DNA of 64,000 bases from a virus, in the UHGV virus genome UHGV-1488776. One strand, given 5' to 3'. Positions 32,659 through 38,397 of the stretch are shown in pieces (positions within the stretch are counted from its first letter, which is position 1; each line of letters begins with the position of its first letter). The position numbers were made by a program, and so were the translations under genes. The notes under the pieces are model-generated. The model saw only the letters and a list, made by a program, of their open reading frames with translations. It was not told the origin of the DNA and made no database searches.

Positions 32659-33852
32659 GTGACCTGGGACGATCATAAGAAGAATTTTGCTCGCCTGGCG
32701 CGAGATGGTGGTTACACCATCGCACAGTATGCCGCCGAGTTTAATCTTAACCCTAATACTGCACGTCGTTATCTCCGTGCCTTCAAAGAAGACACCAGGA
32801 CAGCGGACAGCCGCAAGCCAAATAAGCCAGTCAGGAAGCCACTAAAAAGCATGATCATTGATCACTCTAATGATCAACATGCAGGTGATCACATTGCGGC
32901 TGAAATAGCGGAAAAACAAAGGGTTAATGCCGTTGTCAGTGCCGCAGTCGAGAATGCGAAGCGCCAAAATAAGCGCATAAATGATCGTTCTGATGATCAT
33001 GACGTGATCACCCGCGCCCACCGGACCTTACGTGATCGCCTGGAACGCGACACCCTGGATGATGATGGTGAACGCTTTGAATTCGAAGCTGGCGATTACC
33101 TGATAGATAACGTTGAAGCGCGGAAGGCCGCGCGCGCTATGTTGCGTCGGTCCGGGGCCGATGTTCTGGAAACCACTCTTCTGGAAAAGTCTCTTTCTCA
33201 TCTCCTTATGCTGGAGAACGCCAGGGATACGTGTATTCGTCTGGTGCAGGAAATGCGCGATCAGCAAAAAGACGATGATGAAGGGACTCCGCCTGAATAT
33301 CGTATCGCGAGCATGCTAAACAGCTGTTCCGCGCAGATAAGCAGCCTGATCAACACCATTTACAGCATCCGGAATAACTATCGAAAAGAAAGCCGGGAGG
33401 CGGAAAAGCACGCTTTATCTATGGGGCAAGCTGGCATTGTTAAGCTGGCATACGAACGAAAGCGTGAAAATAACTGGTCAGTGCTGGAAGCAGCTGAATT
33501 CATCGAGGCGCATGGCGGAAAAGTGCCGCCCCTGATGCTGGAGCAAATCAAAGCCGATCTGCGTGCTCCTAAGACCAATACCGATGATGAGGAAAGGCAA
33601 ACAGCCGTCGGTGGCCCTTCTCTTGAAGATCTGGACAAAGTTGCGCGAGAACGGGCCGCCAACCGCCGCGCCGATGCCGCATTGTGGATTGAGCAGCGTA
33701 GGGAAGAAATCGCCGATATCGTTGATACAGGCGGTTATGGAGATGTTGATACTGAAGGTGTATCAAACGACCCATGGCTGGAACAAGACCTGGACGAAGA
33801 CGAGGAGGAAGACGAAGAAGTTACCCGCAAGCTATACGGGGATGATGATTAA
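32659..33852 (+). CDS. pacA: terminase small subunit PacA
   Basis: 397 aa, GTG start with AAGGAAG SD; contains the pac hexamer clusters; acidic C-terminus. Confidence 0.8.
32852..33010. other. pac packaging site (4 + 3 TGATCA/G hexamers with GATC Dam sites)
   Basis: Four TGATCA hexamers at 32852-32892 and TGATCG, TGATCA, TGATCA at 32982-33010 inside pacA. Confidence 0.8.
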
Positions 33853-35360: not shown

Positions 35361-36212
35361 CTATTGCGCGCTTTCGGGGTTGTCGTTTACTGGCTGCCCT
35401 TTCTTAGTTTTACGGCTGCGCGTAACTGATGCGGCTGATTTGACCTTTTTCTCTTCGCGAGTGATGGCAATTTGTTTTTTTACATTTTCAATATCTGCCA
35501 GGCGATATATTTTTGCCTGCGGCCAGCGGTCGCAGATGATCGGTTCTATAGAGTCATAAAGGCTAAATTTTGCTTTCTCGAATTCACCGTTGATGATAAT
35601 TCCATCACGGAGAGTTTCATCGCAGATAAACACACCACATAGCGGCACATGGTAACTAACTGATTTACCATCATTGTAGTTAGGGCTACTAGAAATGTAA
35701 TGGACGCGCAGCATTGTTTCGCTAAAGCCGTGTACGCGCATACGGAATTTTTCATCCTCCGGGTACTGCTTCATTAGCTCTTTTGTTGCTTCCAGGTTCT
35801 CTATGTATTTCGCACTGTGCTCATTGATCCCTGCGCTTTTCTGGATGCGAATGTCCTTATCAATCAGATGAATAATGCGGCCAGCGGTCATGTTGACGCT
35901 GTTCACAGCTTCTGTCTGATAAGTCGTAACCTTACGCACACCGCGAAGGATGTTAGGCACTGGATATAAAATAGTCTTTGGGATATTGAGGTCTGGGTAC
36001 TGTTCCAGTTCCCGCGCCATTAAAGTCCATTTATCAATTTCAGCCTGAATGCTGTCAGTTTCTTTGAACGGCAGAACGACAACCGGGCGTACAGGACGAC
36101 CGTCGCTGGCGGCATCAACGTGTTGGGCGCGTGCAACAGCTTTTTTTAGAAAGAGATCCCTGAAGCTGACGAACTCCTGGTACAGTTGTTCGCCGTAGAC
36201 ATAATTTATCAT
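35361..36212 (-). CDS. c1: C1 repressor of lysis
   Basis: 283 aa, MINYVYGEQLYQEFVSFRDLFLKK; adjacent to coi, operators and loxP. Confidence 0.95.
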   Translation of the reverse strand: MINYVYGEQLYQEFVSFRDLFLKKAVARAQHVDAASDGRPVRPVVVLPFKETDSIQAEIDKWTLMARELEQYPDLNIPKTILYPVPNILRGVRKVTTYQTEAVNSVNMTAGRIIHLIDKDIRIQKSAGINEHSAKYIENLEATKELMKQYPEDEKFRMRVHGFSETMLRVHYISSSPNYNDGKSVSYHVPLCGVFICDETLRDGIIINGEFEKAKFSLYDSIEPIICDRWPQAKIYRLADIENVKKQIAITREEKKVKSAASVTRSRKTKKGQPVNDNPESAQ

Positions 36213-36306
36213 TGATCCTCCTCCAGAATTGACATGGCCAACAACTCACAGCGGATTACACTGGGAGTTGTTGGCCACCATTATAGAAGGATCCAACGAA
36301 AATAAT

Positions 36307-36323: not shown

Positions 36324-36532
36324 TATTGTGAGTCTGGCTGGTTAGTGGCCATGAGATATTCGATTGTGTCAGTGAGATCATCCAGGTCGTCTTGGGTGAT
36401 GCGGTACTCCTGATTGGATATCTTTGAGTAGTGTTCAGCAATGGCGCGGGCAGCGTCGGTTTCGGCGGGGTCTACAGATAAAGCGTTAGAGCAATGTCTA
36501 ACGTCGTCGATGGTTGGTGGAATGAAAGCCAT
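36323..36532 (-). CDS. coi: C1 inactivator Coi
   Basis: 69 aa, MAFIPPTIDDVRHCSNALSVD; immediately upstream of c1. Confidence 0.85.
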   Translation of the reverse strand: MAFIPPTIDDVRHCSNALSVDPAETDAARAIAEHYSKISNQEYRITQDDLDDLTDTIEYLMATNQPDSQ

Positions 36533-36769
36533 AATTATGCCTCACTGTATTGACAACACAGAGCCTGAAGCTCTGACCTACTGTTTCACCCATGATCCAT
36601 GCTGGGGTAATCTAACAACATTGCGCTGTGTGTAAGATGAGCAATGCATAGCTGTAATGCCGTTGTATAAGGTTTCCCTGTTTGCTCATTTCCTTCTGAG
36701 CCGCTCTACAACGCTGAAGACACATTAAATAGTGAATCCAAAGTCGTATTACGAAACGGCGGCAAAACT

Positions 36770-36786
36770 ATAATTTATTAGAGCAA
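36770..36786. promoter_or_regulatory. C1 operator, inverted (16/17)
   Basis: TAATTTATTAGAGCAAT upstream of coi-c1. Confidence 0.6.
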
Positions 36787-36853
36787 TTGTCAAACAACTA
36801 TGAAAAACAATCCAGTTTTTGGCTGGTGGAGTGGGATTTTTCTCTCAAAATTT

Positions 36854-36870
36854 ATTGCTCTAATAATTCT
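36854..36870. promoter_or_regulatory. C1 operator (14/17) overlapping promoter-like CTTGATTTTTA
   Basis: ATTGCTCTAATAATTCT; same module as at 18767. Confidence 0.55.
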
Positions 36871-36913
36871 TGATTTTTATGCGCAGCTGGACGTAAACTC
36901 CTCTTCAGACCTA

Positions 36914-36947
36914 ATAACTTCGTATAGCATACATTATACGAAGTTAT
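36914..36947. other. loxP site-specific recombination site
   Basis: Exact ATAACTTCGTATA-GCATACAT-TATACGAAGTTAT. Confidence 0.98.
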
Positions 36948-37136
36948 CTTAAGGGTTATTGAACATGATCAATTTACCTGTAAATCCATACAGTTCAATA
37001 CCTTATCAGGTCAAATAGTGATCACTTGATCATTTGATCAAGGTTGCGCTACGTAAAATCTGCGAAATGTTGGCAGTGTTAGTGCTCCAGATTTCGCGTA
37101 GCGCACTTAGCACCACCAATCAATCAGAGGTGAAAA

Positions 37137-37358
37137 ATGGGATATTCAGCTGCTAAAGTGTCCACTCATCTTGAGCTTGAGAAAAACCGTGGTTACTGGC
37201 GGGCAAAAGGGTTTGATCGTGATAGTTGCCAACTGTCATTATCGCGCGGTGAAGAGAAAATAGAACGCACGCGCGGTCGCTGGCGTTTCTATGACGAGAA
37301 CCATAAACAGGTAAAGGCAGAGCCGATCCTGTACACTTTACTTAAAACCATTATCTGA
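37137..37358 (+). CDS. small hypothetical protein upstream of cre
   Basis: 73-aa ORF with GAGGTGAAAA SD; preceded by a long inverted repeat. Confidence 0.4.
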   Translation: MGYSAAKVSTHLELEKNRGYWRAKGFDRDSCQLSLSRGEEKIERTRGRWRFYDENHKQVKAEPILYTLLKTII

Positions 37359-37365
37359 GTGTTAA

Positions 37366-38397
37366 ATGTCCAATTTACTGACCGTACACCAAAATTTGCC
37401 TGCATTACCGGTCGATGCAACGAGTGATGAGGTTCGCAAGAACCTGATGGACATGTTCAGGGATCGCCAGGCGTTTTCTGAGCATACCTGGAAAATGCTT
37501 CTGTCCGTTTGCCGGTCGTGGGCGGCATGGTGCAAGTTGAATAACCGGAAATGGTTTCCCGCAGAACCTGAAGATGTTCGCGATTATCTTCTATATCTTC
37601 AGGCGCGCGGTCTGGCAGTAAAAACTATCCAGCAACATTTGGGCCAGCTAAACATGCTTCATCGTCGGTCCGGGCTGCCACGACCAAGTGACAGCAATGC
37701 TGTTTCACTGGTCATGCGGCGGATTCGAAAAGAAAACGTTGATGCCGGTGAACGTGCAAAACAGGCATTGGCGTTCGAACGCACTGATTTCGACCAGGTT
37801 CGTTCACTCATGGAAAATAGCGATCGCTGCCAGGATATACGTAATCTGGCATTTCTTGGGATTGCTTATAATACCCTGCTACGTATAGCAGAAATTGCCA
37901 GGATCAGGGTTAAAGATATCTCACGTACTGACGGTGGGAGAATGTTAATCCATATTGGCAGAACGAAAACGCTGGTTAGCACCGCAGGTGTAGAGAAGGC
38001 ACTTAGCCTGGGGGTAACTAAACTGGTCGAGCGATGGATTTCTGTCTCTGGTGTAGCTGATGATCCGAATAACTACCTGTTTTGCCGGGTCAGAAAAAAT
38101 GGTGTTGCCGCGCCATCTGCCACCAGCCAGCTATCAACTCGCGCCCTGGAAGGGATTTTTGAAGCAACTCATCGATTGATTTACGGCGCTAAGGATGACT
38201 CTGGTCAGAGATACCTGGCCTGGTCTGGACACAGTGCCCGTGTCGGAGCAGCGCGAGATATGGCCCGCGCTGGAGTTTCAATACCGGAGATCATGCAAGC
38301 TGGTGGCTGGACCAATGTAAATATTGTCATGAACTATATCCGTAACCTGGATAGTGAAACAGGGGCAATGGTGCGCCTGCTGGAAGATGGCAATTAG
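37366..38397 (+). CDS. cre: Cre tyrosine recombinase
   Basis: 343 aa, MSNLLTVHQNLPALPVDATSDEVRKNLMDMFRDRQAFSEHTWKMLLSVCRSWAAWCKLNNRKWFPAEPEDVRDYLLYLQARGLAVKTIQQHLGQLNMLHRRSGLPRPSDSNAVSLVMRRIRKENVDAGERAKQALAFERTDFDQVRSLMENSDRCQDIRNLAFLGIAYNTLLRIAEIARIRVKDISRTDGGRMLIHIGRTKTLVSTAGVEKALSLGVTKLVERWISVSGVADDPNNYLFCRVRKNGVAAPSATSQLSTRALEGIFEATHRLIYGAKDDSGQRYLAWSGHSARVGAARDMARAGVSIPEIMQAGGWTNVNIVMNYIRNLDSETGAMVRLLEDGN; matches Cre as I recall it, except the last residue. Confidence 0.98.
   Translation: MSNLLTVHQNLPALPVDATSDEVRKNLMDMFRDRQAFSEHTWKMLLSVCRSWAAWCKLNNRKWFPAEPEDVRDYLLYLQARGLAVKTIQQHLGQLNMLHRRSGLPRPSDSNAVSLVMRRIRKENVDAGERAKQALAFERTDFDQVRSLMENSDRCQDIRNLAFLGIAYNTLLRIAEIARIRVKDISRTDGGRMLIHIGRTKTLVSTAGVEKALSLGVTKLVERWISVSGVADDPNNYLFCRVRKNGVAAPSATSQLSTRALEGIFEATHRLIYGAKDDSGQRYLAWSGHSARVGAARDMARAGVSIPEIMQAGGWTNVNIVMNYIRNLDSETGAMVRLLEDGN

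Follow-up and report, generated by a model that had tools for sequence, protein, structure and literature searches.

The stretch of DNA analysed here (64,000 nt; hereafter the window) contains a region that matches bacteriophages P1 and P7 and many P1-like phage-plasmids at 97.7–99.5% identity, and c1 (35361–36212, minus strand), coi, loxP, cra and cre were all located in it. The records used for comparison were those of the P1 genome (AF234172/NC_005856), P7 (AF503408) and the cre sequence of 1986 (GenBank X03453); a position N of P1 corresponds to position 36930+N of the window. The loxP site (ATAACTTCGTATAGCATACATTATACGAAGTTAT; 36914–36947), which is annotated in all three records, consists of 13-nt perfect arms and an 8-nt spacer. 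Upstream of it, on the plus strand, is the C1 operator Oc1e (formerly Op99e; ATTGCTCTAATAATTCT; 36854–36870, mapped from P1 94724–94740), which is located 60 nt before lox in all lineages examined, followed by the promoter P4cre (36870–36899, plus strand; −35 TTGATT at 36870–75, −10 TAAACT at 36894–99). P4cre is annotated in AF234172 with the comment that it "may control expression of cra and cre", and promoter-like hexamers are retained in divergent lineages at the same distance from lox. It is oriented rightward, through lox and the whole of the inverted repeat described below, such that lox and both arms of the repeat would be crossed by early or induced cre transcription from this promoter.

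The interval between loxP and cra begins with a first Dam site (36967–36970) lying within a TGATCA hexamer, which is annotated in P1 and P7 and kept in all lineages but one. Next to it is the leftward promoter P2coi (36971–36998, minus strand; P1 annotation 41–68), overlapped by a LexA binding site (36976–36995, core CTGTAAATCCATACAG at 36978–36993) that is likewise annotated in P1 and P7. An imperfect palindrome with 21-nt arms (36957–37000) is centred on the LexA box CTGTAAATCCATACAG and carries mirrored TTGAAC hexamers, the minus-strand copy of which is the −35 of P2coi. Three further Dam sites (37020–37039) and the inverted repeat follow, and downstream of the repeat the 73-aa open reading frame and cre reported in an earlier note on this DNA were located at 37137–37358 (cra, plus strand) and 37366–38397 (cre, plus strand), respectively, the latter encoding a tyrosine recombinase of 343 aa.

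The GATC sites start at 36967, 37020, 37028 and 37036, the last three being 8 bp apart. The earlier note had reported these four sites correctly, including the string GTGATCACTTGATCATTTGATCA at 37018–37040, but had put their extent at about 60 bp; the four span 73 bp and three of them fall within 20 bp. In the P1 record three "Dam methylation sites within the regulatory region of cre" are annotated and in that of P7 there are four, the second site being GATC in the window and in P7 (four GATC in total) and GACC in P1 (three). The P1 record places one GATC inside the −35 hexamer of P3cre, which is equivalent to pR1 of Sternberg et al. (1986). This hexamer is TTGATC at 37034–39 in the P1 record, with an alternative −35 at 37026–31 in X03453, so that the last two Dam sites each sit within an alternative TTGATC −35 hexamer of pR1/P3cre. 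The corresponding −10 hexamer, TAAAAT, is at 37054–37059 on the plus strand (P1 annotation 124–129; X03453 175–180), and what appears to be a −10-like hexamer with the A2 and T6 positions can be read within at most two bases of it in every lineage. Regulation by DNA methylation is named in the title of the report by Sternberg, Sauer, Hoess and Abremski (1986). The GATC cluster is thus the already known Dam-methylation-sensitive −35 region of pR1/P3cre, the Dam response being taken from that title together with the P1 record; the suggestion in the earlier note that a cre promoter is under Dam control is borne out by the same title, by the annotated Dam sites of P1 and by the GATC in the P3cre −35.

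Considered on its own the cluster is unexceptional, since at least three GATC sites within 24 bp occurred at least once in 29% of shuffled versions of the window; it is taken as real because it is conserved across lineages and annotated in P1. The TGATCA hexamers of site 1 and of the −35 block are retained in nearly all lineages despite diverged flanks, in two to four copies. One 8-bp TGATCACT unit is absent from some alleles of the P1 clade, and site 1 reads GATT in a single allele. A scan with the promoter consensus gave no match, pR1 being missed because of its non-canonical spacing (14 or 22 bp), and a terminator scan of both strands detected none. Dense GATC clusters of four sites each are also found at 32853–32890 and 32983–33037, of which the one beginning at 32853 is the only other in the window with at least three sites in 24 bp and the second passes only a criterion of four sites in 80 bp; both probably correspond to the Dam-regulated pac packaging site of P1.

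Between the −35 block and cra lies an inverted repeat that is without annotation in the P1, P7 and X03453 records and is mentioned nowhere in the papers found by a search of those citing the P1 genome paper and the 1986 paper. Its left arm (TGCGCTACGTAAAATCTG) occupies 37045–37062 and its right arm (CAGATTTCGCGTAGCGCA; consensus CAGAWTTYRCGTRGCGCA) 37088–37105, with a spacer of 25 nt (37063–37087), free in sequence, between them. The repeat had been described in the earlier note as having 17-bp arms and a 25-bp gap, and it was found as such, each arm being one base longer: the arms are 18 nt each and 16 of the 18 positions are complementary. When the 64-kb window was shuffled 60 times (dinucleotide-type), repeats with 18-nt arms, at most two mismatches and a spacer of 3–40 nt arose in only two of the shuffles (mean 0.05 per shuffle). 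In X03453 two bases (GC) of the right arm are missing at 214–226, equivalent to 37095–37105 of the window, in comparison with all later sequences, and the visible dyad is shortened in the 1986 record for this reason.

The annotated −10 of pR1 falls inside the left arm of the repeat. By the usual spacing from the −10 hexamer, pR1 transcription would start at about 37066, within the spacer, and transcripts from pR1 would for this reason carry the right arm only. Neither the remainder of the 64-kb window nor the remaining 32 kb of P1 contains another copy of the half-site, the one match with three mismatches being at chance level.

Conservation of the repeat was assessed with relatives that had been gathered via the Cra protein, and not via the repeat, to avoid circularity; extra relatives were obtained via orf356, a gene present only in divergent clades. 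The comparison comprised about 60 distinct sequences of the interval from lox to the first gene, 49 of them from the P1 clade, and identities between lineages were calculated for six lineages whose Cra proteins are 59–68% identical. Within the P1 clade only 3 of the 36 arm columns vary (two of 18 in the left arm and one of 18 in the right), as against 12 of the 25 spacer columns (Fisher p = 6.5e-4), and the spacer exists in about 17 alleles. P1-like elements recombine frequently, and polymorphism counts in this clade are therefore not counts of independent events. Between lineages all 25 spacer columns vary. Mean pairwise identity among the six lineages is 0.97 for loxP, 0.90 for the LexA box, 0.90 for the right arm and 0.77 for the left arm, compared with 0.41 for the spacer and 0.39–0.49 for other unconstrained segments, such that the right arm is conserved to the same degree as the LexA box.

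Conservation across P1-like elements, which the earlier note had put forward as a check, was thus observed for both arms in all lineages compared, and the repeat is retained where the surrounding non-coding DNA is only 40–50% identical. Even L261, a much more distant lineage in which lox has changed, retains the operator, the Dam sites, the LexA box and the repeat with its 25-nt spacer. The invariant blocks are GCTACG, AA and T in the left arm and CAGA, T, CG and GCGC in the right arm, while positions 10, 11 and 14 are often mismatched. In most lineages the repeat begins at +131 from the start of lox. No spacer indel was seen in the ~60 sequences, although indels occur nearby; by a rough estimate about one would be expected by chance, and the constancy of spacer length is not significant. 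We conclude that the unannotated inverted repeat is a real element, confined to this locus and maintained by purifying selection.

The interpretation that we favour, and to which we give about an even chance of being correct, is that the repeat constitutes a protein operator with two half-sites which would control pR1 and act as a roadblock to read-through from P4cre. The earlier note had left the choice between a dimeric protein-binding site and an RNA stem undecided; conservation of the arms without covariation (see below) and the position of the left arm over the −10 hexamer favour the protein site, short of proof. As read from the aligned sequences, the putative recognition sequences would be two copies of ~17 bp, GCGCTACG-YR-AAWTCTG, inverted with respect to one another and 43 bp apart from centre to centre, a distance of about four helical turns, so that both would face the same side of the helix. 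Of the two, the left would cover the pR1 −10 hexamer and the right would span about +22 to +39. A protein dimer or tetramer occupying both could block open-complex formation or promoter escape at pR1 and, once bound, could also obstruct transcripts arriving from the upstream, C1-controlled P4cre; the level of cra and cre expression would then be set by the putative repressor on the repeat. The left arm departs further from the half-site consensus than the right arm, as would be expected if the left copy doubles as a −10 element, and the presence of a single copy of the half-site in the genome would suit a dedicated local regulator.

A −10 hexamer overlapped by an operator is a classical arrangement, and the repeat shares with the operators of classical phage and plasmid repressors a dyad, a second site just downstream of the presumed transcription start, conserved half-sites and a spacer that is free in sequence (25 nt in every sequence compared). 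It differs from them in that the half-sites are long (~17 bp) and far apart (43 bp) and in that the candidate binder discussed below is without a recognisable DNA-binding signature; simple dimeric repressors do not usually have half-sites of 18 bp separated by 25 bp. A further likeness is to autoregulated small-protein operons, in that a single-copy repeat adjoins the gene for a small, conserved, basic protein. The C1 operators of P1 (the bivalent Oc1ab, and Oc1e next to lox) are found in the same neighbourhood and are 17-bp sites, some of them arranged as inverted pairs, that overlap promoters, but their consensus, ATTGCTCTAATAAATTT, is unrelated in sequence to the half-site and they are numerous in P1, whereas the half-site is unique. 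The locus as a whole resembles the known P1 cre regulatory region (pR1–pR3, equivalent to P3cre–P1cre), with the GATC sites, pR1 hexamers, LexA box, P2coi, cra and cre at their annotated positions, and differs from it in having four GATC sites, as in P7, and in the repeat that the annotation of the three records lacks.

The first alternative, which we consider unlikely but the least so of those entertained, is that the repeat acts in RNA, as a hairpin with an 18-bp stem and a 25-nt loop in the long P4cre leader, some 30 nt ahead of the first start codon. P4cre transcripts would hold both arms and those from pR1 would start in the loop, without the left arm; the stem might mark early or induced transcripts for processing (by RNase III, for example) or alter their stability or translation, and the two promoter classes would thereby be given different outputs. 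Hairpins that serve processing or stability are known from phage early leaders, where they constitute RNase III sites, and a stable 18-bp stem in the leader from one of two promoter classes is similar to these. P4cre and Oc1e are annotated in P1 and are conserved, with an unchanged distance to lox, in all lineages, complementarity of the arms is found in every lineage (13–17 of the 18 pairs, counting G.U), and the predicted fold is stable (−26.3 kcal/mol, z = −3.9) and persists when the whole P4cre leader is folded. The fold energy is nevertheless not diagnostic, because the lox, LexA-box and TGATCA palindromes of the same leader, which are known DNA sites, fold equally well. The leader RNA beginning at the presumed pR1 start had no unusual structure (z = −0.13).

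What distinguishes between a stem and a protein site is whether the arms vary as pairs. Among 16 alleles, standard pairing between the arms was 84.7%, precisely the value obtained when the 3′ partners were shuffled, and 282 of 500 shuffles reached a value as high; two double-changed pairs were observed against a shuffled mean of 3.0, a set of 14 alleles gave the same result, and the power of the test is limited in that 6 of the 18 pairs are invariant among the 16 alleles. Covariation is no greater than column composition gives, and conservation of each arm's own sequence accounts in full for the complementarity. Where pairs deviate from Watson–Crick, G.U is equally frequent on the two strands; G.U does not outnumber A.C on the transcribed strand, and the pattern favours neither direction of transcription. 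An A.C mismatch is the commonest state at the internal pair 11/51. One P1-clade allele repairs the A.C mismatch by a C to T change at 37095; symmetric changes at pairs 11/51 and 14/48 are compatible with a protein site or a stem. Unlike the processing and stability hairpins mentioned above, then, the repeat exhibits no covariation, no strand-specific G.U and no match to an Rfam family, and the sequence of both arms is conserved to the degree seen in a protein site. A scan of 36500–37600 against Rfam 15 at a permissive E-value returned only sub-threshold matches of the kind expected by chance, there is no U-tract, and a structural loop would not need a fixed length of 25 nt. An intrinsic terminator was rejected on both strands, the loop being 25 nt and neither arm being followed by a T-run, as was a coding explanation, no frame being open across the repeat in all lineages.

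It is less probable again that the two arms have no function as a pair. The left arm might owe its conservation to the pR1 core promoter and the right arm to something unrelated, such as a leader RNA element or the site of another factor; alternatively, the repeat might form a cruciform, or simply reflect low divergence and recombination among P1-like elements. The unequal conservation of the arms (0.77 for the left, which carries the −10, and 0.90 for the right) is in keeping with separate constraints, and frequent recombination deprives the polymorphisms of the P1 clade of independence. Two 18-mers under independent constraint would not, however, be reverse complements of one another by chance, as judged from the shuffled sequences, and the dyad is kept where the neighbouring non-coding DNA is 40–50% identical and where lox itself has changed. 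Against a cruciform are the central mismatches of the stem, which as DNA attains only −15.8 kcal/mol.

If the repeat is an operator, candidates for the protein that binds it may be sought among the genes that it precedes. The first gene after the repeat varies and is cra in the P1 clade, orf68–orf356 or orf356 alone in other clades, and orf188 in L261; cra and cre are the only genes that are in the operon in every architecture. Given this, and since the arms are unlike lox, the foremost candidate is Cra, as an autoregulator; a host factor conserved in Enterobacteriaceae, or a different protein of the phage, is just as possible. The small (73 aa), basic (pI 9.6) Cra is a genuine protein and is conserved, with the motifs ELEKNRGYWRAKGF and VKAEPILYTLLKTII. 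Searches of Pfam, PHROGs, NCBIfam, PADLOC and a PDB sequence profile matched it only to phrog_804 (function unknown), and a Foldseek comparison of its AlphaFold model (pLDDT 71) with PDB and BFVD gave no significant or informative match; structure and profile searches alike return only uncharacterised phage proteins, and no helix-turn-helix, ribbon-helix-helix or other DNA-binding signature was recognised in Cra. With regard to host factors, we know of no match in the repeat to the motifs of FNR, CpxR, ArgR or IHF, to a XerC/dif arm or to the ParB box A. To our knowledge no function has been described for Cra since 1986. Lytic growth requires neither cra nor cre (PMC10695390).

An extension of the operator model, distinctly improbable at present, is that Cra binds both arms as a dual factor similar to Cox or Xis, an autorepressor that would clamp pR1 and stop read-through from P4cre and also an architectural accessory that would bias Cre-lox recombination in vivo, for instance towards dimer resolution. 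The architectural role is suggested by the location of the repeat at a near-constant ~100 bp from lox; we know of no established explanation for the in vivo bias of Cre-lox recombination.

The weakest proposal, that the arms are binding sites for Cre (as autoregulator) or for the C1 repressor, both of which the earlier note had listed as candidate binders, is very improbable: lox and the C1 operators Oc1d and Oc1e are close by and the operon of every lineage encodes Cre, but the best match to a 13-bp lox arm is 7/13, a score reached by 24% of random 18-mers from the window, the weak lox-like similarity is arranged tail-to-tail, which is incompatible with a lox-type site, with a spacer of 25 nt in place of the 8 bp of lox, the lox of L261 has diverged without any parallel change in the arms, and matches to the C1 operator consensus number 4–6 of 13 where the true operators nearby have 1–2 mismatches in 17, so that both proteins were rejected on sequence, the similarity being at chance level.

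In terms of wider relevance, few genetic tools are used as much as Cre-lox, but only part of the native control of cre has been described and the adjacent cra has been without a function for four decades. Within the regulatory region the GATC cluster, pR1/P3cre, the LexA box and P2coi were already known; the conserved inverted repeat is the part that lacks annotation. An operator-like repeat that is unique in the genome and lies over the start of the main cre promoter provides a concrete cis-element and a first test for a function of Cra, and also a handle on the balance between P4cre, under the control of C1, and pR1, sensitive to Dam. Should its role be confined to that of a local operator, the outcome would be a better annotated P1; should it affect lox recombination as well, it would bear on the difference between the behaviour of Cre in vivo and that in vitro.

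The first gene begins 29–40 nt past the right arm, or 64 nt in L261. A conserved block (CCAATCAATCAG; 37116–37127, plus strand), positioned immediately 5′ to the first gene's ribosome-binding site, has a between-lineage identity of 0.82 compared with 0.48 in its flanks. This CCAATCAATCA block always precedes the first gene after the repeat, and in L261 it is 33 nt farther from the repeat and stays with the start codon. Outside the P1 clade, cargo is present between the repeat and cra (L004 1188–2504, L010 1434–2504 and L261 935–2984), consisting of orf68 (phrog_19934) and orf356 (phrog_7674), of orf356 alone, or of orf188, orf352 and orf143; these five genes had no match in Pfam, NCBIfam or PADLOC. 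Distant homologues of orf356 from metagenomes (30–60% identity) are in unrelated contexts without lox or the repeat and added no alleles to the comparison.

Several homologues of Cra (P0002, P0005 and P0024–P0031) are named "creatininase" in NCBI/nr sources. Since a protein of 73 aa cannot be that enzyme the name is wrong, and it looks like a mix-up over the gene symbol cra that has been spread by automatic annotation. The sole other inverted repeat of comparable quality in the window (36234–36276; TGGCCAACAACTC ... GAGTTGTTGGCCA) is situated in the c1 leader, between the promoter Pc1 and the c1 start codon, and is not annotated in AF234172. The divergent lox of L261 (ATTACTTCGTATAGCTCCAATTATACGAAGGAAT; 679–712 of that sequence) has altered outer arm bases and another 8-bp spacer, in an element that is otherwise syntenic and P1-like; L261 lox and its Cre may represent a natural heterospecific pair.
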